Positions 7,975 through 64,000 of a DNA stretch of 64,000 bases are shown piece after piece; position 1 is the first letter of the stretch; every line of letters starts with the position of its first letter. A program made the translations under genes and the position numbers. The DNA is taken from positions 3,520,001 to 3,584,000 of the forward strand of contig OY843751.1 in the NCBI GenBank assembly GCA_963693055.1, given 5' to 3'. The notes below the pieces were generated by a model. It was given only the letters and a program-made list of their open reading frames with translations, was not told where the DNA came from and did not search any database. The DNA comes from a bacterium (GTDB taxonomy: Bacteria > Zhuqueibacterota > Zhuqueibacteria > Residuimicrobiales > Krinioviventaceae).

Positions 7975-9729
7975 ATGGGGATTTTAATCAAAGTAGCGCG
8001 AGTCCAAGGATTTCGAGGTTTAAAAAATATTGAAGTAGAACTTAATAAAACTACTATATTAACAGGAATGAATAATAGTGGAAAAACAACTTTTCTGAAA
8101 GCCTTGCAATTAGCATTAGGGAATCGTCAATTTATATCACAGGACGATTTTTTTATACATGAAAATACAATATCTGAAAAAATAATAATCGATTTATTAA
8201 TTATTCCTTTAGATAATGATAACAAACAATGTGAAAATTTTTCGGAAAATTGGGAAATTCTGTTTACTACAGAAAGAATAAGGTTTAATACGGCAGGCCA
8301 GGCATTTGTTCCACTTAGAACCATTATTACATTCGATGCAATAAAAAATAATTACAGGACCGAACAATTCATTCAACAAGAATGGCCAGAATTTATCAAG
8401 GGGGACACAAATTGGTTTGATATTGATAATGGTAAAAAAACTAACTTTCATTTTGACGAAATCCCCTTCCACTACATGGATGCACAACGTGATATTTTGG
8501 AGGATACAAAATTAAGGAATTCATATCTTGGTAGAATGTTATCCAAAATTGAATACTCACCTGATGATATCAAGGATATCGAAGCACAAATCAAAACATT
8601 GAATGAAAGAGCAGTTAACAGTAGTGAGATTTTAACTAACATCAAAAAAACATTAATAGAGTTAGATACTGCAATGGATAGTAAGAGTGATGGTATCGAA
8701 ATCACACCTTTTACAAAAAAAATTCGTGATTTAAATAAAGGGTTAACTATTTATTATTCCGATAATGAAGATAGTTTTTCAATGGAATATCATGGTATGG
8801 GAACAAGAAGCTGGTCTTCGCTATTAACGCTTAAGTCATTTATTTCTTTGCTAACACAATATGCTAAAAAAGAAGACACTGTATTCTTCCCTATTCTTGC
8901 TATAGAAGAACCTGAAGCTCATTTACACCCCAATGCACAGAAGAAACTCTTCAAACAGATAGATACTATGACTGGTCAAAAAATAATTTCAACACATTCA
9001 CCCTATATAGCTGCAGTTGCGGAAATAGCACAGATTCGAAACTTTTACAAAGATATTAATGTTTCTTGTGGAAAAATAGAAATCGAAAATTTAACAGATG
9101 AAGATATCAGAAAAATTAAAAGACAGGTAATCAATACAAAAGGTGAGATTTTTTTCTCTAAAGTTATTGTTTTTTTTGAAGGAGAGACAGAAGAACAAGC
9201 TTTACCCATTTTAGCACTAAAATATTTTAATAAAACACATGTTGAAATGGGTTTAGACTTTGTAGGTGTATGTGGTTTTGGAAATTACCTCCCTTTCTTA
9301 AGATTTGCTGAAAATTTAAGAATTCCATGGTTAATTTTCAGTGATGCTGAAAGCGACATTAAAACTAAAGTCCAAAAACAATTTGCTGATTGTAGAACAT
9401 CAAAAAATGCAAGTGATTGTATTATTTTTGTTGAAGATGGGAATGATTTTGAAAGGCAACTTATTGCGGATGGTTATAGTGACGAAATCAGACAGGCAAT
9501 CGCTTATTTTGATAATTATTGCAATGATCATCACAAAGCAGCAAGAGAAAAGGAAATAAAAGGGTACAATGATAGTAAATTATACGAAATTATCACAAGT
9601 AAAAAAACTCAATTCGCTCCTGTTATAGCAGAACAAATTATTGAAAGTGATAAAGAGTTATCCCCAAAATTAATAGAACTTTTTGATAAAATTTCTGTTA
9701 TATTAAAATTAAAAGAGGAAGAAGCGTGA
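7975..9729 (+). CDS. gajA: OLD-family ATP-dependent nuclease (ABC ATPase + TOPRIM), GajA-like
   Basis: Walker A GMNNSGKT, signature HGMGTRS, Walker B AIEEPEAHLHP, H-loop ISTHSP, TOPRIM FFEGETE and FSDAE; coupled to a UvrD gene. Confidence 0.85.
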   Translation: MGILIKVARVQGFRGLKNIEVELNKTTILTGMNNSGKTTFLKALQLALGNRQFISQDDFFIHENTISEKIIIDLLIIPLDNDNKQCENFSENWEILFTTERIRFNTAGQAFVPLRTIITFDAIKNNYRTEQFIQQEWPEFIKGDTNWFDIDNGKKTNFHFDEIPFHYMDAQRDILEDTKLRNSYLGRMLSKIEYSPDDIKDIEAQIKTLNERAVNSSEILTNIKKTLIELDTAMDSKSDGIEITPFTKKIRDLNKGLTIYYSDNEDSFSMEYHGMGTRSWSSLLTLKSFISLLTQYAKKEDTVFFPILAIEEPEAHLHPNAQKKLFKQIDTMTGQKIISTHSPYIAAVAEIAQIRNFYKDINVSCGKIEIENLTDEDIRKIKRQVINTKGEIFFSKVIVFFEGETEEQALPILALKYFNKTHVEMGLDFVGVCGFGNYLPFLRFAENLRIPWLIFSDAESDIKTKVQKQFADCRTSKNASDCIIFVEDGNDFERQLIADGYSDEIRQAIAYFDNYCNDHHKAAREKEIKGYNDSKLYEIITSKKTQFAPVIAEQIIESDKELSPKLIELFDKISVILKLKEEEA

Positions 9730-11564
9730 TTGTCACTATAGAATTATCTGAAAAACAAAAAAAAATAGTTTATGCTGAAAACGGACCAATCTATGTTAAA
9801 GCAAGTGCTGGAAGCGGCAAAACACGTGTTTTAACGGAAAGAGTACGCTATTTACTTGGTAAAACTAACAAAAAAGTTCTTGCTCTAACCTTCACAAACA
9901 AAGCAGGAAAAGAAATAAAAGAAAGATTAAGTAGTATTCAAGACTTAGAAAAACGTGTTTTCGTAGGAACATTTCATAGCTTTTGTCAATCTGTCCTTGA
10001 GAACCATGGTGGTTTGATTGGATTAGAACAAATGCCTCATATTTTCGAAGACGATATTGATAGAATTGAGCTAATAGAAAAGGTTATAAAACAAACACCA
10101 TCGTATGCTAATAAATATTATAAACAAGATAAAAATGAACAAAAAAAATTTCTGTATCGTGCTTTAAATTTTATTTCTAAAATGAAACAAAAATTAATTG
10201 CAGACAATGAAATTGGTGAACATACTGATAATGAAGATATTATTTTATTATATCAAAACTATCAGGAAATTTTACGATCTCAAAATGCAATAGATTTTGA
10301 TGACTTGCTTTTACTTGCTTATAACTTACTAATTAATTTCACCCAAATAGCATCATTATATAGACGAAACTTTTTTGCTATTTGTATTGATGAAGCACAA
10401 GACTTGAATAATGCTCAATACCAACTTTTAAGAGCTTTAACAAATAATGAATTTAACAATGTAATGTTGGTAGGTGACCCTAATCAATCAATCTATCACT
10501 TTAATGGTTCATCACCAGATTTTATGGATAAGCAGTTTGTAAATGACTATAATCCCTTCATAGTTGAACTTGTTGAAAATTATCGTTCATCAAAAAAAGT
10601 ATTAGAAGCAGCAGGTAAAATCATTACTGACGCGGAATATATAATAGGAACGATCAAAGAAGGGCATTTTGAAATAAACAGTTTGGAGGATGAAGAATTA
10701 GAAGCTCAGTGGGTTGTTGACAAGATTAAAGAATTAATTTCATTAAAAGCACATAAAGATATTGAAGGTAAAATTACATATGAAAAAATCGCAGTACTTG
10801 CACGGAATAAATATATATTCAATCAACTAGAAGCTCAATTATACAAAGCTAATTTACAGTTCTACTATAAAATGACACCCGGTGCTTTACAATTTGAATC
10901 TGAATTAATGAAGATATTTGACCTTGCATTTAGGGTAAAGTTAAATCCTCAAGATCTTTTACATAAACAAAGATTATTAAATCTTATAGAAATTGATACA
11001 ACTACAAATACAGAAATAAATAATTTCATTCCAATGGTCAAAGATGAATTAGTTAAAAATTTAATCAAACTGGTAATAGAATTATATGATGATGGGAGTA
11101 ATATTATCAAGATGTTGGAAAATTTTAGGGACAGTTTAAATGTAAAAGATGAAAATGAAAAGAATATGATCTATAAAGACATAGATGAATTCCTCAAACA
11201 CTGGAAAAATTACGCTAAAAATACAGATAACAAATCCTTGCATCAATTTAAAAATTCAATGGCATTAGGGCAAACCCATTCATTGTCACAACACTCAGGT
11301 ATAACACTGAGTACAGTTCACACCATGAAAGGACAAGAATTTGATATTGTATTTGTCATTGGAATGGATAATGAGACTTTCCCTGATTATAGAGCATTAC
11401 GTAACGGGGGGATAGAGCTAATACAAGAAAAAAACAATCTTTATGTTGCTTTTACCCGCGCAAAACGTTTTTTATATATTACCTGGCCACAAAAAAGGAT
11501 GATGCCTTGGGGTGAATACAAAACACGAAAAATTTCAGATTTTTTAAAAGTATTCAATACCTAA
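9726..11564 (+). CDS. gajB: UvrD/PcrA-like SF1A helicase, GajB-like
   Basis: ASAGSGKT, LTFTNKA, GTFHSF, IDEAQD, VGDPNQSIY, ENYRSS, AVLARN, STVHTMKGQEFD, LYVAFTRAK; GTGA overlap with the OLD nuclease. Confidence 0.85.
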   Translation: MIVTIELSEKQKKIVYAENGPIYVKASAGSGKTRVLTERVRYLLGKTNKKVLALTFTNKAGKEIKERLSSIQDLEKRVFVGTFHSFCQSVLENHGGLIGLEQMPHIFEDDIDRIELIEKVIKQTPSYANKYYKQDKNEQKKFLYRALNFISKMKQKLIADNEIGEHTDNEDIILLYQNYQEILRSQNAIDFDDLLLLAYNLLINFTQIASLYRRNFFAICIDEAQDLNNAQYQLLRALTNNEFNNVMLVGDPNQSIYHFNGSSPDFMDKQFVNDYNPFIVELVENYRSSKKVLEAAGKIITDAEYIIGTIKEGHFEINSLEDEELEAQWVVDKIKELISLKAHKDIEGKITYEKIAVLARNKYIFNQLEAQLYKANLQFYYKMTPGALQFESELMKIFDLAFRVKLNPQDLLHKQRLLNLIEIDTTTNTEINNFIPMVKDELVKNLIKLVIELYDDGSNIIKMLENFRDSLNVKDENEKNMIYKDIDEFLKHWKNYAKNTDNKSLHQFKNSMALGQTHSLSQHSGITLSTVHTMKGQEFDIVFVIGMDNETFPDYRALRNGGIELIQEKNNLYVAFTRAKRFLYITWPQKRMMPWGEYKTRKISDFLKVFNT

Positions 11565-51700: not shown

Positions 51701-51727
51701 AAAAAAAGCCCGGTTTATACGGGCTTT
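51701..51727 (-). terminator. Intrinsic terminator ending the apiose/pectate lyase operon
   Basis: AAAGCCCG...CGGGCTTT with a 7-U run on the minus strand. Confidence 0.75.
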
Positions 51728-51805: not shown

Positions 51806-53200
51806 TCAATCAACAATACTATTCAAGTATTTCTCCAACATGGTATAACCGTCTTTAGCTATGATATTTCTATCATTGGGATCGTCTTTATTTAGATGAT
51901 TCTCAATCTCCCAAACATCAGGCATGCCATCATTATCAGAATCTGTGGGGGCCGGAGCACTTTTAAGTATTGGCCAGCCACCAACATCATTTTGGGTGTC
52001 AATAATGCCACATATTTTTGATGGATCAGCAACCTGGTGCTCATTTTTATAACTGAGCCCTTCAAAGGTTGCATTGCCTGTACGTACTTCGTTAATAATT
52101 CTTTTATCAATGGCATCTCTTTTGGGCACAATTGCGCCCGCATTGTTTAGAACAGTTTGGTAAGCTTTTTGGGCAGTTTGTTGTTTAATAGACATGGATG
52201 GCCAGGGTTCATCAAGTTTGATTTTTTCTACAGATATATCCGTTTGTACTCCTCCATCCCAATTATGGGCTGAAACCTCATCATTACCCTCAACAACATT
52301 ATCTGCGATGTACCATTTTCCATGATCTGTTTCGCTTCTAAAAGAGGGACTGGCAATTCGGTACGATACATTACCGGGCTTTGTAGCCGGACCCGGTTTA
52401 TAATAATTGGCAACAATATTAAAACTGGAAAAATTAAATCGATCATCACCGGTTTGAAACTTTTCACCACCGTAAAGGCTTTGATACCCCCAGTTATAGA
52501 TCACATTATTTCTATAATCCGTATATCCGGAACCCGAAGCCATTCTCGGATTTCTACTGCTATGATGCGCCAGCAGATTATGATGATAGGAACTATAATT
52601 ACTTCCCCAAATACCACCAAAACCGTGAGAACCTTTGATATGATTAGATTTACTCATACTTTCTGAAATAATGCACCATTGAACCGTCACACTATCGCAA
52701 TGATAGATCGACATACACTCATCAACACTCCAGCTTGCTGATATATGGTCAAGAATAATATTTTTAGTAAATCGGCTCGATATGGCATCATAATCATTAC
52801 CCGATTCATCCCCCAGTCTTACCCGAAGGTATCTGATGATGACATGGTCCGCATCAATACTAATGGGATGTCTTTTAATACAAATACCATCACCCGGTGC
52901 TGTTTGGCCAGCTATGGTAATATACGGTTTCTTGATTTTTAATGGACTTTCAAGATCTATTGTACCAGACACCTCAAAAACAACTGTTCGTGGACCTGAG
53001 GCCTCAATCGCAGCTCTTAGACTTCCTTCTCCGCTATCATTCAAATTGGTAACTTTGTATACAACACCACCCCGACCGCCTGATGTATATTTCCCATAAC
53101 CCTCGGCTCCGGGAAAAGCGAGTTGTTGAGAATGTAGCTGTCCAAATATTATTAAGATTATAAACAATACTACTGATTTAAAAATGTAAAAATACTTCAT
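51806..53200 (-). CDS. Secreted pectate lyase (PL1, Bacteroidota-type)
   Basis: AFPGAEGYG..GGRGG.VY.VTNLNDSGEGSLR, TIAGQTAPG, DHISASWSVDE, RNPR, C-terminal DSDNDGMPD.WE. Confidence 0.92.
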   Translation of the reverse strand: MKYFYIFKSVVLFIILIIFGQLHSQQLAFPGAEGYGKYTSGGRGGVVYKVTNLNDSGEGSLRAAIEASGPRTVVFEVSGTIDLESPLKIKKPYITIAGQTAPGDGICIKRHPISIDADHVIIRYLRVRLGDESGNDYDAISSRFTKNIILDHISASWSVDECMSIYHCDSVTVQWCIISESMSKSNHIKGSHGFGGIWGSNYSSYHHNLLAHHSSRNPRMASGSGYTDYRNNVIYNWGYQSLYGGEKFQTGDDRFNFSSFNIVANYYKPGPATKPGNVSYRIASPSFRSETDHGKWYIADNVVEGNDEVSAHNWDGGVQTDISVEKIKLDEPWPSMSIKQQTAQKAYQTVLNNAGAIVPKRDAIDKRIINEVRTGNATFEGLSYKNEHQVADPSKICGIIDTQNDVGGWPILKSAPAPTDSDNDGMPDVWEIENHLNKDDPNDRNIIAKDGYTMLEKYLNSIVD

Positions 53201-53219
53201 AGTTTACTCTCGTCTTAAA

Positions 53220-54662
53220 TTATTCAACGGTAACAACTATCCGTTGATATCTCGTTAATTGCGGTGTTCCTGAATCTTTTACCTCGCAAATGACATGAAG
53301 GGTTTCACCTTTAGCAGCATCTTTAGGAATAATAAAGGATGCCTGTTCCTGCCCTGCATCTTTAATATCAATGATTCCATCATAGGTATCCGCTTCTTTA
53401 TATTGCCACCATTGATATGTAAGATCATCTCCATCCGGATCGGTTGTGCCCTTGGCGTTTAAATTCACCAAATCACCCGGTTTAGCCTGCAAATCATTTG
53501 CATGTGCCAGCCTAACGATTGGCGGATGATTGGCCTCATCATACGAATTCACACACCAGTCGGCACGGGCAGCAAAATCATTTTGAAACGCATCGGACCA
53601 TCTCCAAATGGGTTTAAAATATTCAGCATGGTCATTACTGTTTGATACAGTTGCGCCTTTTTTAGAACTCGTTCTTCCCCATGCCGATGAGCCATACCAC
53701 CGACCTTTAGGATATTCATAACCTTTTTCTGGTACCGGATCAAGCCAGGTGTTCTCTCGAATGCGTACATAGCGACCACCCCAGCCTCCCCAGTCCGGAG
53801 ATTCAAGGTTTCGCAAACCGGTAACAATCGCGTGCATAAATGAGGGCGAATCGCCTTCGGAACGGAAATCCCCGTCATCAAATCCTTTATCGCCTGCTTT
53901 GTGTGCTTTGTAAAGCGAGCACAAAGGACCATGATTATCTAATATATTGCTTTTCATCCACTCGCCAACATAATATGGATGCATATCCTGGGGCTGACAG
54001 GTCTTCCATCGATAGGCAATGGCCTCAAACTGGTCAGAAATAATGGTTAGGATATTATATTTGCCCCAATGCGGACGAATATATGCCTGATAGGTTGAAT
54101 CCTGTTCCCAGATAAAAAAGAAGCGGATTTTGTTGGCCACCTCTTGCATACGATCAGGATGATCTTCTTCAATTGTCCTGAGCGCTCGCGCTATAGTATT
54201 GGTTCCACCCCAGGCCTGCAGCCAAACCGGACGATCATCAGATTTGTCCAATAATACTTTGACAATCAACTCTGAACCGGCAGTTATTTTATCCATTTCA
54301 CCTTCAGTTTCAACATTTCCAAGTGCTGTACGTGCTTTAAGGTAATCCGGAGTAGGATATTCAGGATCATGCTTGACCAGGTTGGGATAAACCTGCGTGT
54401 ACGCATCAAGATAGGGATCAAGCCAGTCATCACCGGCCCACCGGTGTCCGTGCCAGTGATATTGCGAACTGGAGGTTACAATCGCTTCAATGTCCCAGTC
54501 ATTGGTATAAAGCAGACAACGCACCATGGAACACTCGTCATCAATCTCTCCATCACTGGTAATAATAACGCGTGGTTTTTCTGAATCTTGAGACTGGTTT
54601 ACGGCAAACACATATAATGATGTTAACAAAATAATTAATAGTATAAAATTTATGATTTTCAT
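53220..54662 (-). CDS. Secreted DUF1593 (nucleoside-hydrolase-like) protein with C-terminal Ig-like domain
   Basis: Signal peptide; PRVIITSDGEIDDECSMVR.LLY.N, WGGTNT, EGDSPSF, WGGWGGR, NDFAARADW, ANHPP, DPDGD, TRYQR. Confidence 0.87.
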   Translation of the reverse strand: MKIINFILLIILLTSLYVFAVNQSQDSEKPRVIITSDGEIDDECSMVRCLLYTNDWDIEAIVTSSSQYHWHGHRWAGDDWLDPYLDAYTQVYPNLVKHDPEYPTPDYLKARTALGNVETEGEMDKITAGSELIVKVLLDKSDDRPVWLQAWGGTNTIARALRTIEEDHPDRMQEVANKIRFFFIWEQDSTYQAYIRPHWGKYNILTIISDQFEAIAYRWKTCQPQDMHPYYVGEWMKSNILDNHGPLCSLYKAHKAGDKGFDDGDFRSEGDSPSFMHAIVTGLRNLESPDWGGWGGRYVRIRENTWLDPVPEKGYEYPKGRWYGSSAWGRTSSKKGATVSNSNDHAEYFKPIWRWSDAFQNDFAARADWCVNSYDEANHPPIVRLAHANDLQAKPGDLVNLNAKGTTDPDGDDLTYQWWQYKEADTYDGIIDIKDAGQEQASFIIPKDAAKGETLHVICEVKDSGTPQLTRYQRIVVTVE

Positions 54663-54673
54663 TAAACAAATCC

Positions 54674-56161
54674 TCAATTTAATAATGCCACAGCAGACTG
54701 CCATCCCTTGTAATCATTCATCACATCAGGATTCTCCAGGGGATAATACACAATATGATCATATTTCAATTGTTTCAAATCATTCAGGTCTTTATACATA
54801 CCTGAACCCAATCCAGCCATTAATCCAGCACCCAGTGCAGAAATATCGGCTATACCTATATTATTTACATTAACACGCAAAAGGTCAGAGATAAACTGCA
54901 TTACAAATTTATTATTGGTAATACCACCATCGGCCATCAGTTCCTTTAAGGAAATGCCGGCATCTGCTTCCATAGCAGTGATCACGTCTTTTATCTGGTA
55001 AGGAATGGATTCCAATGCAGCCCGAACAATATGACGCTTGTCCGCACCAAAGGTCAAACCGCTGATCACAGCCCTTGCATCCATCTGCCAATGCGGCGCA
55101 CCTAATCCGCTGAATGCAGGTACCAAGTACACGCCTTCATTGCCATCCAAAGCAGTGGCCATAGCTTCTGTTTCTGACGAATCCGAAAATAGTCCCAACT
55201 GGTTCTTGAGCCAATTGATACTTGCTCCCGCAGTAACAATAATGCCTTCCAAGGCATAATCCGTTCTGTCAGCAGTGCTCCAGCAAATCGTTGCAACCAT
55301 ACCATTCTTAGATTCTACCCTTTTGCTGCCGGTATTCATCAAAATGGAGGAACCCGTACCCAAGGTAACTTTGGCATCTCCGGGAGCAAAGCATCCTTCG
55401 CCGAAAGCAGCCGCGTGCGAGTCTCCAATCATGCCGGTTATGGGAATAGGAGCTTCAAACACACCTTCAAAATCAGATGAACCATAATTATAAGCAGAGG
55501 GTTTGGGTTCGGGAAGGTTTAGTTTCTCCACACCAAACAATTTCAGCATTTCACTGTCCCATTTCAGCTCATTTATATTGAAAAACAGGGTTCGTGATGC
55601 ATTGGTATAATCCGTATAATAACTTTTTGCCTGTGTCAATTTATATAAAAGCCAGGAATCCACAGTACCGCCAAAAGCTTTGCCTGAATCAATTGCTGAT
55701 TTTACTATATCACTGTTCTCATTCAACCACATGACTTTAGTACCGGAAAAATAAGGATCAATGATTAAACCGGTGCGGGCTGTGATTTCTTTTTCAACAT
55801 CCTGCGTTTTGAGTCGGTTACAGATTTCTACCGAACGTTTGCACTGCCAAACTACCGCATTATGTAACGGATTGCCTGTTTCATCCCATAGTAAATAGGT
55901 TTCACGCTGGTTCGAGATTCCGCATGTGTTAATATTGTTCAAATCACCGCCCTGTTGTTTATACTGATCTACACACTGGTGAACGGATTCAATAACCGTT
56001 TGATAAATTTCTTCAGGGTTCTGTTCTACAAAACCGGGTTTGGGATAACTTGAAGCCAGTTCCACAGTTGCTTTAACAATCAGCTTTCCATTTTCGTCAA
56101 ATAAAACAGTTTTTGTTCCACTGGTGCCCTGATCAATCGCCAGGATTAATTTCTGCTGCAT
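54674..56161 (-). CDS. aplK: FGGY-family kinase, probable D-apulose kinase (glycerol kinase-like)
   Basis: DQGTSGTK, ISNQRET, PYFSGTK, TNASRT, GDSHAA, PAFSGLGAP; GlpK glycerol-binding WQ.RR/DQQ replaced by WQCKR/DSH; operon context. Confidence 0.75.
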   Translation of the reverse strand: MQQKLILAIDQGTSGTKTVLFDENGKLIVKATVELASSYPKPGFVEQNPEEIYQTVIESVHQCVDQYKQQGGDLNNINTCGISNQRETYLLWDETGNPLHNAVVWQCKRSVEICNRLKTQDVEKEITARTGLIIDPYFSGTKVMWLNENSDIVKSAIDSGKAFGGTVDSWLLYKLTQAKSYYTDYTNASRTLFFNINELKWDSEMLKLFGVEKLNLPEPKPSAYNYGSSDFEGVFEAPIPITGMIGDSHAAAFGEGCFAPGDAKVTLGTGSSILMNTGSKRVESKNGMVATICWSTADRTDYALEGIIVTAGASINWLKNQLGLFSDSSETEAMATALDGNEGVYLVPAFSGLGAPHWQMDARAVISGLTFGADKRHIVRAALESIPYQIKDVITAMEADAGISLKELMADGGITNNKFVMQFISDLLRVNVNNIGIADISALGAGLMAGLGSGMYKDLNDLKQLKYDHIVYYPLENPDVMNDYKGWQSAVALLN

Positions 56162-56170
56162 GAAAAATCC

Positions 56171-57115
56171 TTACTTTAATAATTGCTTTGCGGTTTCTGC
56201 CAATCCTTGTGCAGAAATACCATAATGACCAAATATTTCCAATTGACTACCAGTAACCGTATATTCATCAGGAATGCCTACACGCTTGAACGCGGTAGAT
56301 ATACCAGCTTCCAGAATTAGTGCGGCAACGGCCTCTCCCAGACCACCATTAACCAGATGTTCTTCTACTGTTATTACTGCATTACAGGATTGGGCCGCTG
56401 ATAAAATCGCTTCATTGTCCAGAGGTTTTATGGTATGCATACTTATCACTCTTGCAAATATTCCATAATCTGCCAGTTCCTCAGCAGCTGCAAGTGCATG
56501 ATAGACCGTTTCTCCTGTAGCAATTAAGGCAACATCATCACCTTTGCGCAAGGTTATGGCTTTGCCCGGTTCAAACACTGTATTTTCCGAGTGCAGATCA
56601 TACATGGGGCGTTTTCCAAACCGAACATAAACGGGATGCGGCATTTCAGCCGCAGCCATAATAGCATGACGGGTTTCAAAATTATCAGCAGGTACCATTA
56701 TCATTATATTATTAATAGCTCGCAATACAGCCAGATCGTGCAGTGAGTGGTGTGTAGAACCCAGGGCACCATAACTGACACCCGAGCTAATACCCACCAA
56801 CGTTACGGGATTATCAGAATAACAGACATCATTTTTGATCTGATCTAACGCACGGGCAGATAAAAAACAGCCCGGTGATACGGCAAAAACTTTTTTACCT
56901 GTAGATGCAAGTCCGGCAGATATGCCTACCAGATTCTGTTCAGCAATACCAACTTCAACAATCTGGTTTGGATATTTTTCTCCAAAAGGTACCAGTTTCC
57001 CTGACCCGCGGGAATCACTGGTTACTGCAAATATCGATTTATCTGTCTCTGCCAGTTCCATTAAGGTATTGGCAAAGACCTCAAGATTGGGTTTTCCTAA
57101 TACAAGGGAATTCAT
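56171..57115 (-). CDS. aptB: Transketolase C-terminal subunit (apulose-4-phosphate transketolase B-like)
   Basis: GIAEQNLVG, DQIKND, LGSTHHS, YVRFGK, TIKPLD, EEH...GGLG. Confidence 0.8.
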   Translation of the reverse strand: MNSLVLGKPNLEVFANTLMELAETDKSIFAVTSDSRGSGKLVPFGEKYPNQIVEVGIAEQNLVGISAGLASTGKKVFAVSPGCFLSARALDQIKNDVCYSDNPVTLVGISSGVSYGALGSTHHSLHDLAVLRAINNIMIMVPADNFETRHAIMAAAEMPHPVYVRFGKRPMYDLHSENTVFEPGKAITLRKGDDVALIATGETVYHALAAAEELADYGIFARVISMHTIKPLDNEAILSAAQSCNAVITVEEHLVNGGLGEAVAALILEAGISTAFKRVGIPDEYTVTGSQLEIFGHYGISAQGLAETAKQLLK

Positions 57116-57213: not shown

Positions 57214-58038
57214 TTATAATGCGGACAACTGGCTATCCAGCTCCTGCATAGCAGTTTCATATTGTTCATCCGAAGGAACACCGTGGTGCCACTTTTTCAC
57301 ATTTTCCATAAAAGAAACACCTTTGCCTTTAGTGGTACGGGCAATAATCATAGTGGGTTTGCCGGTTTCCAAAGGCGCATTGTTCAATGTTGTTTCCAAC
57401 TCGTCAAAATTATGGCCATCAACCGTTTTTACAGCCCAACCAAATGCAGAAAATTTTTCTTCTAAAGGATCGGTCTCACATACTTCCTTGGTTGGGCCGG
57501 TGATCTGTAATCCGTTATAATCCAGAATGGCTACAAGATTGTCCAGCTTGTAATGCGATGCAGACAGCATGGCCTCCCAGTTTGAGCCTTCTGCTAACTC
57601 GCCATCTCCCAGCAGAGTAAATACCCGATAAGGAAGCTTGTCTTTTTTAGCAGCCAGGGCCATTCCCACACAGATTGGCAGCCCATGTCCCAATCCTCCG
57701 GTATTCTGCTCAATCCCTTTTACCTTACGGGTAGGATGCCCCACATAATTAGACTGGTACTTGCATAATGTTTCAAGATCAGTTACAGGGAAAAATCCCT
57801 TGTCTGCCAGCACAACATATAATGCTTCAACCGAATGCCCTTTGCTTTGGATATAGCGGTCACGGTTGGGATCAGAAAAGTTATCCGGCGTTACATTCAA
57901 AACGCGGTTATAAAGAACATTTAATATATCTATACAGGAAAGATCTCCGCCGGTATGACCGGCATTGGCGATCTTTATATATTTCAATATATTTTTTCGA
58001 TACTCGATCGATTTTTTCAACAATTCAGTTTTATTCAT
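57214..58038 (-). CDS. aptA: Transketolase N-terminal subunit (apulose-4-phosphate transketolase A-like)
   Basis: GHTGGDLS, QSKGH, GHP, TGGLGHG, GDGE.AEGSNWE TPP motif, KGKG..WHH. Confidence 0.8.
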   Translation of the reverse strand: MNKTELLKKSIEYRKNILKYIKIANAGHTGGDLSCIDILNVLYNRVLNVTPDNFSDPNRDRYIQSKGHSVEALYVVLADKGFFPVTDLETLCKYQSNYVGHPTRKVKGIEQNTGGLGHGLPICVGMALAAKKDKLPYRVFTLLGDGELAEGSNWEAMLSASHYKLDNLVAILDYNGLQITGPTKEVCETDPLEEKFSAFGWAVKTVDGHNFDELETTLNNAPLETGKPTMIIARTTKGKGVSFMENVKKWHHGVPSDEQYETAMQELDSQLSAL

Positions 58039-59480: not shown

Positions 59481-60461
59481 CTATATATTATTCTTAATCT
59501 CTCTACTCATTTTGTCAATTATGACTGCCAACAGAATTACCAGCCCTTTAATGACCTGCTGCCAAAATGGTGAAACGTTTAATAAAACCAGTCCGTTATT
59601 CAAAACACCAATGATCAGCGCTCCCTGCACGGTTCCAATAATAGAACCGCGTCCACCGGACAATGACGTCCCGCCTATAACAACAGCGGCAATAGAGTCC
59701 AGCTCAAAGCCCATACCCGCGTTTGGCTGCGCTGAATCAAGCCTTGAGGTAACCAACAATCCGCCTACAGCCGACATGGTGCCGGCAAGGGTATACACAA
59801 TCATTTTAACACGATCTACATTTAGACCTGACAGGCCGGATGCTTTTTCATTGCTTCCAACCGCGTAAATATAACGTCCTAATCTCTTTTTACGGGTAAG
59901 GACCACCATCAGCACAACAATCAAAGCTGTAATCCACACCGGTACAGGGATGCCCAAAAACCATCCGGTTCCCATAAAAGCAAAAGAATTTCCCAAACCG
60001 GTAATGGGAAATCCACCAGTCCATAACATGGTCAATCCGCGGGCCATGGTTAACATGGCAAGGGTGGCTACAAAGGGTGGAACTCGGAAACGGGTAATAG
60101 CCAATCCATTGACCCAGCCCAGGGCTGAGCCGGTCACCAGACCGGCAATAACTGCTCCCAGAAATGTGAATCCGATAAACAGGTTTAAACCCGGAATTTC
60201 AATACCATTTTTCAGTAATCCGGCTGCTACCGCACCACTAATAGCCAGTATGGACCCTACAGAAAGATCAATGCCTCCCGTTAAAATAACCAGGGTCATT
60301 CCCATGGATAAACAGACATTGACCGATATTTGTCGCATCACATTCCAGGAATTATCAACGGTTAAAAACTTTTCCGTAAAAATGGATAAAAAAACAATCA
60401 TGATCAGCAATGCAATCAATGACTGGAACCGTAATAATGTATTTTTCAAATTCTTGTTCAT
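59481..60461 (-). CDS. Monosaccharide ABC transporter permease (RbsC-like)
   Basis: GIDLSVGS, PPFVATL, GR.IYAVG.NE.A.LSG, ELDSIAAVVIGGTSL.GG.G. Confidence 0.94.
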   Translation of the reverse strand: MNKNLKNTLLRFQSLIALLIMIVFLSIFTEKFLTVDNSWNVMRQISVNVCLSMGMTLVILTGGIDLSVGSILAISGAVAAGLLKNGIEIPGLNLFIGFTFLGAVIAGLVTGSALGWVNGLAITRFRVPPFVATLAMLTMARGLTMLWTGGFPITGLGNSFAFMGTGWFLGIPVPVWITALIVVLMVVLTRKKRLGRYIYAVGSNEKASGLSGLNVDRVKMIVYTLAGTMSAVGGLLVTSRLDSAQPNAGMGFELDSIAAVVIGGTSLSGGRGSIIGTVQGALIIGVLNNGLVLLNVSPFWQQVIKGLVILLAVIIDKMSREIKNNI

Positions 60462-62011
60462 GCAATTTCCTGTTTCTGTGTTTCAATACTCTTGGGGATT
60501 GCCGCACATAGTAAATTTTCTTCTGTCGCCTGAGATGGGGTAAATTCACCGTTTAATTGTCCCTCAGACATGACTAAAATCCGGTCCGAGATAGCAAGTA
60601 CTTCGGGCAATTCAGAAGAGACCATAATGATGCCCAATCCTTTTCCCGCCAACTCGCTGATAAGTTTATAAATTTCATTTTTTGCGCCAACATCTACCCC
60701 GCGTGTGGGCTCGTCCAGGAATAATATACGGGGATGCGTAGCCAGCCATTTAGCAATAACAACTTTTTGCTGATTCCCCCCGCTCAATTTTTCAACCGCC
60801 TGTGTTGTTCCGGGCGTTTTAATCTTTAATTGTTGTATATAATCTTGTGCAAGGTTCTGTTCAGCCTGACAGCTTAAAAATCCACATTTTTCAATCTGTT
60901 GTATATCGGCAAGGCTGATATTCTCTGCAACACTCATCTCTATAATTAATCCCGCGGATTTGCGGTCTTCATGCACATAGCCAATTCCGGCATCTATGGC
61001 CTGTTGCGGATTTTCAATAGAGATTTTACTGCCATCAATATAAATAGAGCCGGTGTGCGCATTGCCATACACACCGAAAATACAATCAAACAATTCGGTA
61101 CGTCCCGCACCCATCAAGCCGAAAATACCCAGCACCTCACCTTTTTTCACATGAAAGGATATATCTTTTAATAAATAATCATTCTCTCTGGCAGGATGTT
61201 TCAGACTCAGGTTTTCAATTTGAAGAACCTCAGCACCAATACTCACTATATCCTTTACGAAAAAATCATCCATATCTCTGCCAACCATGGACCGGATGAT
61301 ATCTTCCTGAGTAAATTCTGAAGAGGGTCCGGAGGTTATATATTGTCCATCTCGAAAGATGGTTATTGCATCAGCAATTTTATCTAGTTCGTCCAGCTTG
61401 TGAGTAATATAAACAATAGCAACACCATCAGCTTTTAGGGATTTAATGAGACCAAACAAAATATCCACTTCATGTTCACTGATTGCCGAAGTTGGCTCAT
61501 CCATGATAATAATTCTGGCATTCAAAGAAAGTGACTTGGCAATTTCAACAATCTGCTGCTGACCTACACGCAGATTTTCGACAGCAGAGTGGGAATGAAT
61601 ATCTGAATTGAGTTTTTGCAACAGCGCCCGCGTATCATCAGCCATCTTTCGATAATCGATAAAACCCAGTCGGGTTAAAGGTTCGCGTCCCAGAAAAATG
61701 TTTTCAGCAACCGTCAGGTGAGGTATCAGATTCAATTCCTGATGGATGATGGCTATACCCAGATCCTGAGCATGCCGGGGGCCGGTAAAACGGACTGGCT
61801 CGCCATCTAGCAGCAGCGTACCCTCGTATTCCGTATATACACCGGACAAAATTTTCATCAAAGTGGATTTACCCGCTCCGTTCTCTCCCAGAATGGCATT
61901 AACCTGTCCCGCGTAAATATCCAGATCAACATTCTGCAATGCCAGAACACCGGGAAATCGTTTACTCACTGACCGTGCAGCGAGTACGGATTTTAATACT
62001 GCATTACTCAT
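60458..62011 (-). CDS. Monosaccharide ABC transporter ATP-binding protein (RbsA-like, fused double domain)
   Basis: GENGAGKSTL, MDEPT, GLMGAGRTE, LSGGNQQK, DEPTRGVDVGAK. Confidence 0.95.
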   Translation of the reverse strand: MSNAVLKSVLAARSVSKRFPGVLALQNVDLDIYAGQVNAILGENGAGKSTLMKILSGVYTEYEGTLLLDGEPVRFTGPRHAQDLGIAIIHQELNLIPHLTVAENIFLGREPLTRLGFIDYRKMADDTRALLQKLNSDIHSHSAVENLRVGQQQIVEIAKSLSLNARIIIMDEPTSAISEHEVDILFGLIKSLKADGVAIVYITHKLDELDKIADAITIFRDGQYITSGPSSEFTQEDIIRSMVGRDMDDFFVKDIVSIGAEVLQIENLSLKHPARENDYLLKDISFHVKKGEVLGIFGLMGAGRTELFDCIFGVYGNAHTGSIYIDGSKISIENPQQAIDAGIGYVHEDRKSAGLIIEMSVAENISLADIQQIEKCGFLSCQAEQNLAQDYIQQLKIKTPGTTQAVEKLSGGNQQKVVIAKWLATHPRILFLDEPTRGVDVGAKNEIYKLISELAGKGLGIIMVSSELPEVLAISDRILVMSEGQLNGEFTPSQATEENLLCAAIPKSIETQKQEIA

Positions 62012-62639
62012 GAGAACCTGAAATAATTTTTATCGGGATAATACCCAGGGGATCAATTTCGGGATCATCCTGACTCACTTCGGCAGCACCGATAAATGAA
62101 ACGGAGTGTCCCGTTTGCAACTGGCTTTTTGCAGGATTTACCACCAACTCTCTCACCCGTTTATTGATCTCTGAAGAAATGGCATTAAACTCCATGCTGT
62201 TGGGGAAATCACTCACATCCACCAATCCGGAAGCATCCCGGACAGCGTTGCCAAACAGATCCAGAGCAATCAGCAAGACATCCGGGTTTCCGTCTTTTGT
62301 TGTATCCAAATAAAATCCACTCGGTTCAATCTTGACCACAGTACCCTCACCTTTGATCAAATAAGCGTGTTTGGATGCAATACCCAGTGTTTTAGCATAT
62401 TTCGATACAGCTTTATCCATATCATTTTGAAATAATGGAAGCAGAACATTTGCATCCACAGCTTGGCCCAATACAGACGGAAGTTCTTTATCCCAAAAAT
62501 TCTGTACATATATTTGGGCATCAAAAACATCGGATTTAGCATTTTCTTTCATCTTGTCCAGTTTCTTGATATAAACAGACTGGGACAATATGACCAAACC
62601 CAACACCAGAAAGATAAAATATTTAATTTTTCTCTTCAT
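62004..62639 (-). CDS. DUF2291-family periplasmic/membrane-anchored protein
   Basis: N-terminal anchor; FW..L....AV, GEGTVV, GNAVRDA.G....DF.N..EFN.IS..IN, V.F.GA; located between the binding protein and the ATPase. Confidence 0.8.
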
Positions 62640-63585
62640 TTTTTCCATATGCAGTATATTTTTCAATATTTTCCTGATTCACCAGTTCAACAGCAATAGG
62701 CAACTTTTGCGGGAAATCGGTTTTGCCATTCAAATACTGGTCTGCCATTTCAGCAGCCGTACGGGCCATTACTTTGGGAAACTGCATGCCGGTTGCCATG
62801 ATTTTACCGTCACGGATAGAATCTACAACATCTTTGGCACCGTCAAACCCAAACACCATAACATTGTCCGCTTTACCGGCAGATGCCAGTGCCTGGTATG
62901 CACCCATAGCCATTGCATCGTTTCCACAAAATACCGCGTCAATATCGGGATTTGCCTGCAATATAGATTCCAATACTTCCATAGCCTTATTACGGTCAAA
63001 ATCCGCACTCTGTTGCGCAACCATTTTTATATCAGTGTAATTATCAACAACACTGTGGAAACCGCGTGAACGGTTCCAGGTATTATTGTCACCAACCAGG
63101 CCCAACAACTCTACATATTTACCTTTTCCGTCTAATTTCTTGACAAAATACTGTCCCAGGGCAACACAACCGGAATAATTATCAGAAAGAATTTGTGATA
63201 CAGCGTCGGTATTGGAATTGATCTCGCGGTCCATGCAGAATGTAGGTACCCCCGCTTCTTTGGCGCGCTTGACATTGGATATTGAACCCTCTGCATCAGT
63301 AGGATTAAACAAAATTGCCTGATAACCGGCGGCTATAATGTTTTCAAAATGGTCCGTTTCTTTTGCATTATCATTTTGAGAATCAAAAATGGTTACCTTG
63401 TAACCCAACTCACGAGCTCTCTCGCCAGCAGTTTCACCCAGTACAACAAACCAGGGATTGTTCAGTGTAGAGATAACAACTGCAATCTGTTTTTCTTTCT
63501 CCGCATTTTGACCGGCATCTTTGCTGCATGCGGTGAACAAGAAAACAGATATCACACTCAAAAGAATGATAATTTTTCTAGACAT
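62623..63585 (-). CDS. Sugar ABC transporter substrate-binding lipoprotein (RbsB-like; probable D-apiose-binding)
   Basis: FTAC lipobox; [34 protein letters not shown]. Confidence 0.88.
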
Positions 63586-63601: not shown

Positions 63602-64000
63602 TTAGGCAATAATAAACTCTATACCATGCCTTGCAAATTCCTGACGATCCTGGTCGGTAATACCATCATCAGTAATTAGATAATTGATAAGCGACAATGC
63701 ACCCAAGCTGGCAAGTGATTGAACTCCAAGTTTTGAGGAATCTGCAACCAGATAGACTGTATTGGCCGCTTCGATCATGGCTTTTTTCACCGGCAAATCA
63801 CTCAGACTGGGGTATGTTAATCCGGCACGAAGGGTAATGCCTGCTGTTGCTAAAAACAATTTATCCACATGTACATTTTGAAAAAATTCCGCTGCCTTTT
63901 GCCCGGTAAGCGACAATGTAGGCGCCTTAAATTCACCGGCAGTAAGCAAAACCGTTATACCAGGCTGGCCACCAATGATGAGTGGAATATTGACTGCATT
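63602..64000 (-). CDS. DeoR/GlpR-family regulator, C-terminal part (truncated by the window edge)
   Basis: LTAGE, VDKLFL...GI, K.AMI.AA..V.LVADSSK, LITD; reading frame remains open to position 64000. Confidence 0.85.
   Translation of the reverse strand, partial: NAVNIPLIIGGQPGITVLLTAGEFKAPTLSLTGQKAAEFFQNVHVDKLFLATAGITLRAGLTYPSLSDLPVKKAMIEAANTVYLVADSSKLGVQSLASLGALSLINYLITDDGITDQDRQEFARHGIEFIIA

Follow-up and report, generated by a model that had tools for sequence, protein, structure and literature searches.

A DUF1593 protein and a PL1 lyase at the end of a probable apiose operon: a candidate apiofuranosidase for apiosylated pectin

Why should an operon for the use of a free sugar end with a DUF1593 protein and a pectate lyase? 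The question is raised by a 64,000-nucleotide window (the whole stretch of DNA analysed here), in which the ORF calls place all operon genes, kinase through lyase, on the minus strand. The operon is headed, on the same strand, by a DeoR regulator whose 3' part lies in the window (63602..64000; the whole gene, G000:C1:3583602-3584363, begins beyond it). Then come a ribose-type sugar-binding protein, probably an apiose-binding protein (62623..63585), a DUF2291 protein (PF10054; 62004..62666), whose family has a member in the E. coli apiose cluster too, a sugar ABC ATPase (60458..62011) and permease (59481..60461; 44% identical to the permease of the E. coli apiose cluster), an L-fucose-isomerase-family protein (PF02952; 58060..59466), the N-terminal (57214..58038) and C-terminal (56171..57115) subunits of a transketolase, probably AptA and AptB, and an FGGY kinase, probably the apulose kinase AplK (54674..56161). 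The last two genes encode a 480 amino acid DUF1593 protein of the subfamily that we call D4 (53220..54662) and a 464 amino acid lyase resembling PL1 subfamily 2 (51806..53200).

The DUF1593 gene begins at an ATG (54662) that lies 11 bp past the kinase stop with GAGGA just upstream, and its ORF ends at 53220. An alternative ATG at 54704, the first one taken by the ORF finder, overlaps the kinase and is therefore the less likely start. The lyase ATG (53200) stands 19 bp after DUF1593, the gene ends at 51806, and 79 bp past its stop there is an intrinsic terminator-like hairpin with a T-run (51705..51727, minus strand), whose fold of -15.1 kcal/mol (z -4.41) was equalled in 0 of 200 shuffles; the terminator scan is weak on its own, with 22 sites versus 15.1 +/- 3.6 expected. 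Coordinates and fold thus confirm the spacing and the terminator described in an earlier, sequence-only reading of this DNA, and DUF1593 and the PL1_2-like lyase probably close the apiose operon, with the terminator after them. The same reading gave both proteins signal peptides. Both N-termini are indeed strongly hydrophobic and have no lipobox cysteine; export is a prediction.

Is it an apiose operon? When AptA, AptB, AplK, the permease and the binding protein encoded by the E. coli SE15 apiose cluster are compared with this genome, each finds its best match among the genes of the window, and the gene set is held in common with that cluster at 32-51% identity. The kinase and the N- and C-terminal transketolase subunits (36%, 51% and 45% identity, respectively) are clustered, each being the top match in the genome. 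Strains with a cluster of the E. coli SE15 type are reported to grow on apiose (PMC13001218), so that the operon, previously named from its sequence, matches a growth-validated apiose cluster. The PF02952 protein occupies the isomerase slot; its putative role as apiose isomerase is assigned from position, and no solved relative of it was found.

What kind of protein is the DUF1593 product? A Pfam search finds the nucleoside-hydrolase-like domain PF07632 (E 7e-73, 245.9 bits) and the beta-sandwich PF21027 (E 4e-30, 104.6 bits), with a curated cut-off of about 27. An AlphaFold2 model (pLDDT 85.9) resembles 2YHG (Foldseek E 2e-38; Z 37.8, rmsd 2.7 A over 378 residues) and, more distantly, the nucleoside hydrolases (Z about 15, ranging over 13-15.5 for 39 entries of the fold; rmsd about 4 A, about 240 residues). 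A nucleoside hydrolase (NH) core fold is predicted from this model. The protein has no match to PF01156 at E 0.01 and none to PF13204, the GH140 catalytic domain; hhalign of 200 DUF1593 domains against RihA/RihC gave a probability under 3%, which is not significant. A PDB profile search returned 2YHG only and an ESM Atlas search PF07632 clusters only. No published work naming DUF1593 was found in the literature searched, which leaves out subscription journals.

The Asp-rich, nucleoside-hydrolase-like N-terminal motif that first drew attention to this protein is present as SDGEIDD (residues 36-42), and its aspartates are near-invariant among 200 DUF1593 domains (D37 200/200, D41 200/200, D42 198/200). 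The fingerprint stretch reads T-S-D-G-E-I-D-D, with T, L or S at position 35 across the 200 domains, which leaves DxDxxxDD incomplete. D37, D42 and D271 (198/200), the putative calcium-binding aspartates, stand at nucleoside-hydrolase-like spacing, the last some 230 residues downstream; because the hhalign mapping failed, the assignment of D271 as the last calcium aspartate rests on spacing and conservation. Other residues of note are W151 and E269, the latter kept in 103/103 D4 domains and replaced by Met in 35 of the 200. The residue before D271 is glycine (G270) in 200/200 domains, where nucleoside hydrolases carry the His, Trp or Cys that PMC8910321 describes as a feature of these enzymes just before the last calcium aspartate. 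As modelled, the fold and the acidic residues suit a furanosidase using calcium and a cis-diol.

Does DUF1593 accompany the apiose pathway in other genomes? In the phylum of the window genome, PF07632 occurs in 18 of 20 isomerase-positive genomes versus 28 of 147 others, a 46-genome count that leaves out seven genomes whose only PF07632 matches have E of 2.4e-5 or weaker. Among 25 genomes with strong GH140, at least three PF07632 matches are found in 10 of 13 isomerase-positive versus 0 of 12 negative ones. An even sample of 300 Bacteroidota genomes has PF07632 in 5/5 with a close apiose pathway versus 18/295 others; the count becomes 5/10 versus 18/290 when it takes in five PF07632-negative genomes whose isomerase relative is 50-52% identical, which we treated as having another pathway because no transketolase, kinase or DUF2291 gene was found in the 14-20 kb around these relatives. 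Fisher p-values overstate the co-occurrence, since related genomes are not independent. In three genomes (G472, a complete chromosome by its record title, G089 and G137) DUF1593 stands next to an apiose operon while the search for GH140 found none; a PF07632 profile search gave no match in our control, B. thetaiotaomicron, which is reported to degrade RG-II with GH140 as sole apiosidase (bioRxiv 10.64898/2026.03.13.711244). The co-occurrence of DUF1593 with apiose genes and GH140, proposed earlier as a check on this locus, thus holds in both directions and in two phylum-wide samples.

The association does not extend to the family as a whole. In the unbiased Bacteroidota sample, 2 of 23 PF07632-positive genomes have a copy about 10 kb or less from an apiose operon and 1 has D4, and most single-copy DUF1593 genes are not near apiose or PL1 genes. 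The sequence-only reading, in speaking of "a function for DUF1593", was too wide, and we rejected a family-wide apiose role after examining these loci. The apiose/PL1 link is specific to subfamily D4 and its frequent companions.

At the level of loci, we counted companions within 10 kb in 77 loci with DUF1593 relatives 64-87% identical. A PL1 lyase is present in 51/77 and a pectin-type enzyme in 61/77; two or more apiose genes occur in 17/77, spread over four phyla as judged by record titles, and GH140 in 9/77. Because apiose genes or GH140 are found in 24/77 loci versus PL1 in 51/77, DUF1593 is tied most tightly to the lyase and less so to apiose. Of the 103 D4 domains, 32 have PL1 directly downstream and 16 have it directly upstream (a few loci are counted twice). 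The reverse search, starting from the lyase, shows D4 immediately upstream in 9 of the 18 metagenome loci that have at least 1 kb of upstream DNA (some are near-duplicates). There are also fusions: two of DUF1593-PL1, one of GH105-DUF1593, and two of DUF1593 with a GDSL esterase. DUF1593 genes are found inside apiose operons, amid transketolase, kinase and transporter genes (e.g., L051, L092, L126, L176), and the same neighbourhood appears in differing gene orders in four phyla. Going by record titles, cultured carriers exist in Nibrella, Prolixibacter, Sunxiuqinia, Lacihabitans and Phocaeicola. GH127, GH143-like and PL11 genes are absent from the 10 kb flanks of all 77 loci, which we do not count as evidence because a flank of this size misses them in the window genome too.

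Since it stands between apiose genes and a pectin lyase, recurrently in several phyla and sometimes fused to the lyase, DUF1593 likely clips apiose off pectin. In its specific form, to which we give about even credence, our proposal is that the D4 protein may be a periplasmic, calcium-dependent exo-beta-apiofuranosidase acting on terminal apiose of apiosylated galacturonan (apiogalacturonan-type) chains or fragments. The earlier suggestion of an apiofuranosidase or apiose-processing enzyme gains from the operon identity, the co-occurrence, and the predicted fold with its acidic residues; the enzymatic role remains that of a candidate. D37, D42 and D271 would hold a Ca2+ that would grip the 2,3-cis-diol common to beta-D-apiofuranoside and beta-D-ribofuranoside, and a calcium-bound water would act as the nucleophile at C1, inverting the anomer. 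Cleavage of an O-glycoside also needs a general acid, a role for which E269 is the strongest candidate. Cutting the backbone between branches would be the task of the PL1_2-like lyase, probably before DUF1593 acts or in turns with it, and the fragments would be broken down further by GH105/GH28 enzymes. Once released, apiose would be imported by the ABC transporter, and the isomerase, the kinase and the split transketolase would feed it into central metabolism.

The lyase itself has no Pfam match. Its closest solved relative is PfPL1 (9BUJ; E 4e-63, in an alignment of residues 25-344 only), and it matches the PelZ equivalog model at E 7e-45 with a score of 153.7, below the cut-off of 840. In the conserved R216-N-P-R219, R216 aligns with the catalytic Arg220 of PfPL1; R216 is kept in 53/55 and R219 in 49/55 aligned relatives, and D138, D160 and E161 are conserved as well. 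By homology to PfPL1 and PelZ and by the catalytic arginine, we classify it as PL1_2-like. No secretion tail was found on it, and near relatives also occur by themselves (e.g., L184, L195, L201). PfPL1, a PL1 subfamily 2 enzyme of the Pseudoalteromonas fuliginea PS47 pectin locus, is reported to be active on apiogalacturonan (PMC11229556). The order proposed earlier, in which DUF1593 debranches the polymer for the lyase, is unsupported because this PL1_2 relative already cuts apiogalacturonan.

Might DUF1593 perform some other step on pectin fragments with the same calcium site? It could hydrolyse an ester, cleave off a different sugar, convert one ring form of apiose into another, or free borate from the diols of apiose. 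We consider this unlikely, if the least so of the competing explanations. The tie of DUF1593 to PL1, GH105 and PL10 is stronger than that to apiose genes, as such a role would have it, and the GDSL esterase fusions point the same way, as does subfamily D14, which in 6 of 10 loci of the unbiased Bacteroidota sample lies among xylan/arabinan enzymes and esterases (CE15, SASA and others). At least eight subfamilies with different pocket motifs are moreover found together in loci. However, the copy number of DUF1593 tracks the apiose isomerase even among GH140-positive genomes, its genes lie inside apiose operons, and the known ligand of the fold is a furanose cis-diol.

Next in probability, and rather improbable, is a different substrate: DUF1593 could release apiose from RG-II-derived stubs or from small apiosyl glycosides (apiin, apiosyl-glucosides) rather than from apiogalacturonan. 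The operon ends a cluster of about 60 kb, reaching beyond the window edge, that contains GH138, GH143-like, GH140, GH127 and GH78 genes as well as another DUF1593 gene followed directly by another PL1 (GH138, E 1e-244 to BPa0997; GH143-like, 6e-120 to 5MQR; GH140, 1e-156 to 3KZS; GH127, a Pfam match). One GH140 gene of this genome stands some 28 kb upstream. Because this GH140-bearing RG-II cluster adjoins it, the operon has an RG-II source of apiose here also, and is explicable without a new apiosidase. For small glycosides, two single-copy DUF1593 genes are within two genes of a GH3 glucosidase. Yet the apiose of RG-II is internal, and in B. thetaiotaomicron GH140 alone is reported to free it (bioRxiv 10.64898/2026.03.13.711244); the PL1 and GH105 fusions, too, point to a galacturonan substrate. 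Among ten genomes with D4 loci (single-protein queries), at least one RG-II marker was found in five, both in two and neither in five. G169 and G171 have their GH143-like and GH140 genes grouped at a long distance from the DUF1593-PL1 locus. In genomes other than this one, the D4-PL1 cassette is not always accompanied by RG-II markers. Of the initial idea of an apiogalacturonan-degrading system at the operon end, the recurrent D4-PL1-apiose linkage stands, and the adjoining RG-II cluster with GH140 speaks against reading this one locus in that way only.

It is quite improbable that DUF1593 is a non-catalytic apiose- or furanose-binding protein capturing apiosylated fragments for the lyase or transporter, as proposed for Sde_0182. 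Sde_0182 is the only relative that has been studied. PMC8910321 describes it as having no activity on nucleosides, the only substrates named as tried, and as a proposed furanose-binding module. The absence of the leaving-group histidine and the tandem repeats of two or three DUF1593 domains in one chain would fit a binding role. Like catalytic domains, however, DUF1593 domains come with binding-type modules of their own (LamG, malectin, Ig; in Sde_0182, CBMs); four aspartates and one glutamate are near-invariant, and the operon already has a binding protein. That DUF1593 and the lyase are a mobile pectin cassette placed at the operon end by chance and unrelated to apiose is very improbable and largely refuted. 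In its favour, the cassette is 83.5% identical to that of a congener versus 89-93% for the flanks, its gene content differs between the two, and the lyase G+C of 0.39 is below the operon's 0.42-0.43. Against it, four phyla show this neighbourhood with varying gene order, and genome-level co-occurrence stands in the even sample.

If the D4 protein is an exo-apiofuranosidase, it is tempting to go further. Zostera and duckweeds contain apiogalacturonan as a major pectin, and the apiose on it is mainly terminal (PMC4483652). With somewhat less than even conviction, we suggest that DUF1593 may be a new glycoside hydrolase family and the first O-glycosidase on the NH fold, that its co-occurring subfamilies may split the apiose linkages (Api-1,3-GalA, Api-1,2-GalA, Api-1,3'-Api, apiosyl glycosides), and that D4-PL1 may represent a so far undescribed bacterial route for seagrass and duckweed apiogalacturonan. 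The exo-apiofuranosidase role by itself, if it holds, would give the DUF1593 family its first known activity and provide a substrate for the 2YHG-type structure, without function since 2011. It would also show that O-glycosides can be cleaved by a calcium-dependent N-ribosidase fold, and would make the D4-PL1 pair a marker for aquatic-plant pectin turnover.

How does this system compare with known ones? The C-terminal region of Sde_0182 of Saccharophagus degradans (2YHG) shares the PF07632 + PF21027 architecture and the acidic motifs (E 5e-59 by sequence); it is about 35% identical, belongs to a different subfamily and carries CBMs, which the window protein does not. Nucleoside hydrolases (PF01156; RihA, RihB/YeiK, IU-NH) share the predicted fold, DxxxDD from the fingerprint and, 229 residues on, an invariant Asp. 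In contrast to them, the DUF1593 protein (10-16% identity) has Thr for the first fingerprint Asp, Gly for the catalytic His, an extra beta-sandwich, a predicted export signal and a proposed O-glycosidic bond as its target. The GH140 apiosidase BT1012 (PF13204; 3KZS/5MSY) acts on the sugar proposed for DUF1593 and belongs to an unrelated family; its reported target is the Api-GalA bond inside RG-II, cleaved while the rhamnose is still in place, whereas DUF1593 is proposed for terminal apiose, for which no title on a bacterial enzyme was found in the literature searched (subscription journals are left out). For the lyase, the nearest system is PfPL1, itself reported active on apiogalacturonan. 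Finally, the D-apiose transketolase pathway (AplK, AptA, AptB, ABC transporter, DUF2291; MetaCyc PWY-8089) has the same gene set as the window operon, which carries a fucose-isomerase-family gene where Pectobacterium has apsI and E. coli two oxidoreductases; the E. coli apiose cluster is without exported enzymes, while the window operon has two predicted exported ones.

The DUF1593 gene of the apiose operon (53220-54662) begins 11 bp beyond the kinase gene (54674-56161) and is followed after 19 bp by the PL1 lyase gene (51806-53200); all lie on the minus strand, where a hairpin with a T-run comes after the lyase gene (51727-51705; z -4.41; none of 200 shuffles folds as well). ORF coordinates and hairpin thus confirm the layout of kinase, DUF1593, lyase and terminator described in the sequence-only reading. 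The DUF1593 protein matches the Pfam profiles PF07632 and PF21027, both far over the cut-offs, and is by sequence a member of the DUF1593 family; its sole solved relative in a sequence and profile search of the PDB is Sde_0182 (2YHG). The best solved relative of the lyase is PfPL1 (9BUJ), reported as the first structure of PL1 subfamily 2 (PMC11229556). Both proteins are predicted to be periplasmic, because their N-terminal stretches are hydrophobic, neither has a lipobox cysteine, and a Pfam profile search found no secretion tail on either; such a tail is present on a lyase paralogue elsewhere in the genome. The best reading, on which we regard the odds as even, is that the DUF1593 subfamily of the window protein (here D4) is a Ca2+-dependent exo-apiofuranosidase for apiosylated galacturonan. 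It would act together with the lyase, and the released apiose would enter the operon's pathway.

Is the operon one for apiose? The E. coli SE15 apiose cluster was chosen as reference because strains that have it are reported to grow on apiose (PMC13001218). SE15 AptA (51% identity), AptB (45%), kinase (36%), permease (44%) and binding protein (32%) each have a window gene as best match in the host genome, while for the SE15 ATPase the window ATPase comes second (41.6 vs. 42.5%). The SE15 DUF2291 protein has no BLAST match at 1E-10; it and the window DUF2291 protein belong to a common Pfam family. The window isomerase is of the fucose-isomerase family, and from its gene position we infer that it is the apiose isomerase. 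Since the nearest solved relatives of the window binding protein carry the label ribose-binding, apiose is the probable, not the proven, substrate. Loci L159-L163 represent a more distant fucose-isomerase-like clade (50-52%), accompanied by neither transketolase nor DUF1593 but frequently by LacI and a sodium symporter. In several Bacteroidales apiose operons, a transporter of the PF07168 ureide-permease family, a candidate apiose permease, takes the place that the ABC system has in the window (L053, L056, L057, L065, L068, L099, L116).

A genome scan confirmed 193 relatives of the window DUF1593 protein, and the best 80 gave 77 loci (64-87% identity). Within the fetched DNA, which extends to 20 kb in 45 of the 77, we find PL1 in 51 loci, GH105/GH88 in 16, PL10 in 11, GH28 in 9 and GH140 in 9; at least one pectin-type enzyme is present in 61 and at least two apiose-pathway genes in 17. 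Apiose-linked DUF1593 loci occur in KSB1, Bacteroidota, Planctomycetota and Verrucomicrobiota with differing gene orders, and multiple paralogues per locus are usual. Two unassigned exported-type families also lie repeatedly beside DUF1593/PL1, one with DUF5060 and a collagen-binding-like domain (about 630 amino acids, e.g., L075:8020-9897; 7/77 loci) and one DUF6298-like (L108:6952-8460; 3/77); both are candidates for further apiose or pectin steps. The 200 collected DUF1593 domains form at least eight subfamilies with mutual identity of about 30-55%. D4 is a single clade (support 0.78) of 103 domains, a set that was seeded by the window query and in which a few loci count double. PL1 is the gene immediately downstream for 32 of these domains and the gene immediately upstream for 16. 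Fusions join DUF1593 to PL1 (L102:8682-11459; L087:9530-12745), to GH105 (L102:5729-8560) and to a GDSL esterase (L128, L093); others join DUF1593 domains to each other, along with LamG or malectin modules. Conversely, a search with the lyase as query gave 35 metagenome loci, 32 at 60% identity or more; DUF1593 is seen in 13 of these 32, D4 lies directly upstream of the lyase in 9 of the 18 loci whose upstream DNA extends to 1 kb or more, and lone lyases occur (e.g., L184, L195, L201). Such varied pectin partners would also fit some other catalytic step on pectin fragments, a minor possibility; on the other side stands the association with apiose genes at the genome level.

Within the host's own phylum (167 genomes; seven with only marginal PF07632 matches dropped), the isomerase occurs in 20, and PF07632 in 18 of these 20 vs. 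28 of the 147 others; related genomes not being independent, the significance of all our genome-level counts is overstated. Among 300 Bacteroidota genomes drawn evenly, with the centre excluded, PF07632 occurs in 23, including all five that have a close AptA (at least 66%) and a close isomerase (at least 61%). The co-occurrence that the sequence-only reading proposed to quantify is therefore positive. As a control for general pectin richness, the comparison in the host's phylum was narrowed to the 25 genomes in which PF13204 (GH140, an apiosidase family) matches at E 1E-100 or better. PF07632 then gives at least three matches, fragments included, in 10 of 13 isomerase-positive vs. 0 of 12 isomerase-negative genomes.

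The association does not reach across the family. When DUF1593 loci were fetched from all 23 PF07632-positive Bacteroidota genomes, only G172 and G386 had one in the vicinity (about 10 kb or less) of the apiose operon, so the function once suggested for DUF1593 as a whole is too wide. D4 occurs only in G386, flanked by PL1 genes and beside GH140. Loci with a single member of another subfamily, D14, were scanned for neighbours within two genes (n = 10, L139-L148; 75 of 80 neighbours selected): in six, D14 stands amid genes for GH43, GH51, GH54, GH127, GH29-CBM6, CE15 or esterases; an apiosidase-like gene is close by in one, and the remaining three have no carbohydrate enzyme nearby. This mostly xylan/arabinan-type setting suggests that the family has a second substrate. 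D14 also follows apiose operons (L127, L132, L176), so its role may be the uncapping of small apiosyl glycosides, or a different one.

The apiose operon forms the end of a cluster of genes that share one strand over about 60 kb. Directly past the end of the window (G000:C1:3520001-3584000), on the same strand, lies an RG-II-type cluster (G000:C1:3584486-3633151; L001-L003, L008) with PL11, GH78, GH127, two GH28, GH43 and a TonB receptor, beside which no SusD was found; a GH143-like protein (E 6E-120 to 5MQR), GH140 (E 1E-156 to 3KZS/5MSY), GH138 (E 1E-244 to BPa0997), and a second DUF1593 gene immediately ahead of a second PL1 gene. Judged by its gene content, the ~60 kb cluster adjoining the operon is an RG-II locus, and a case outside Bacteroidota; it was out of sight for the sequence-only reading. 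It includes a PL1-BNR (sialidase-like) fusion of 840 amino acids, and genes for a DUF1537-type kinase, PdxA2, a DHDPS-family aldolase, an iron alcohol dehydrogenase and a sodium symporter (L001:8323-12637), which may together catabolise an acid sugar of RG-II. Three cluster proteins have no Pfam match (L002:14873-17002, 709 amino acids; L001:17466-18902, 478; L009:356-2533, 725), the first no PDB match either. This setting would suit an apiosidase that acts on stubs of RG-II or on small glycosides, a reading that we think unlikely. In three genomes (G472, G089, G137) the apiose operon adjoins DUF1593 and a GH140 protein query finds no match; with the PF13204 profile, G472 has no match at 1E-20, and the matches in G089 and G137 are all remote (near 1E-38). 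Ten genomes with D4 loci matched neither RG-II marker tried (GH143-like, GH138) in five cases, one in three and both in two, so D4 is often present without them; in G169 and G171 a GH143-like gene stands with GH140, distant from the DUF1593-PL1 locus. B. thetaiotaomicron, our control genome, has PF13204 and no PF07632, and is reported to rely on BT1012 as the only apiosidase for RG-II (bioRxiv 10.64898/2026.03.13.711244); RG-II breakdown thus does not need DUF1593.

That DUF1593 is a binding protein we hold to be quite unlikely. In its favour, Sde_0182 is described in print as a furanose-binding module that is inactive on nucleosides (PMC8910321); against it, D37, D41, D42 and D271 are conserved in 198-200 of the 200 domains. 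The host genome has four DUF1593 genes; directly downstream of GH95 and one paralogue, a BNR_4 protein is apparently split into two ORFs (L005:5498-6877; G000:C1:43497-44876). At the corresponding site of the congener (G085), the order is kinase, DUF5060-type protein, DUF1593, PL1, DUF1593. Comparing the two genomes, identity is 83.5% for the DUF1593-PL1 cassette vs. 89-93% for the flanks, as might be expected of a hitch-hiker on the apiose operon, a very improbable reading beside apiose-linked loci in four phyla. Window 7975-11564 holds an OLD-family-like ATP-dependent nuclease gene and then a UvrD-like helicase, resembling the Gabija defence pair (translations judged by eye).

We found no literature naming DUF1593 (subscription journals lay outside coverage), one relevant review on PF07632, Sde_0182 and 2YHG, and no title giving DUF1593 an apiose-releasing activity (subscription journals and bioRxiv supplements lay outside coverage). 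The analysis put to the test the tie of D4 to PL1, fusions among the evidence, with an even sample as control and with genomes lacking GH140, and how far the claim extends.

How would an exo-apiofuranosidase of this kind work? The model of the window protein (pLDDT 85.9) gives Z 37.8 to 2YHG and Z 13-15.5 to nucleoside hydrolases; by the membership tests the protein does not belong to the nucleoside-hydrolase family. Natural beta-D-apiofuranoside has a 2,3-cis-diol in common with beta-D-ribofuranoside, its hydroxymethyl being shifted from C4 to C3, and because of this diol the predicted Ca2+ site would suit it. A deep pocket of the nucleoside-hydrolase kind would accept terminal apiose in preference to the apiose of RG-II, which is internal. 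Terminal apiose is described as the dominant form in Zostera apiogalacturonan, and apiosylated oligogalacturonides as remaining after pectinase (PMC4483652). The sequence-only reading had DUF1593 debranch the polymer for the lyase, an order that finds no support: the PL1_2 relative PfPL1 is reported active on apiogalacturonan (PMC11229556) and pectinase leaves apiosylated oligogalacturonides, so the lyase need not await debranching. In nucleoside hydrolases, three aspartates are reported to bind a Ca2+ that contacts the attacking water as well as ribose O2' and O3', and the leaving group to be protonated by a His ahead of the last Asp (PMC8910321). In DUF1593, D42 and D271 are 229 residues apart, and E269 is invariant in D4, D14 and a third subfamily, D15, and Met in 35 of the 200 domains. 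The window protein is a candidate enzyme that probably works like a nucleoside hydrolase. The predicted fold is similar and the conserved acidic residues may hold Ca2+ in the same way; the position of the nucleoside-hydrolase His is Gly in all 200 DUF1593 domains.
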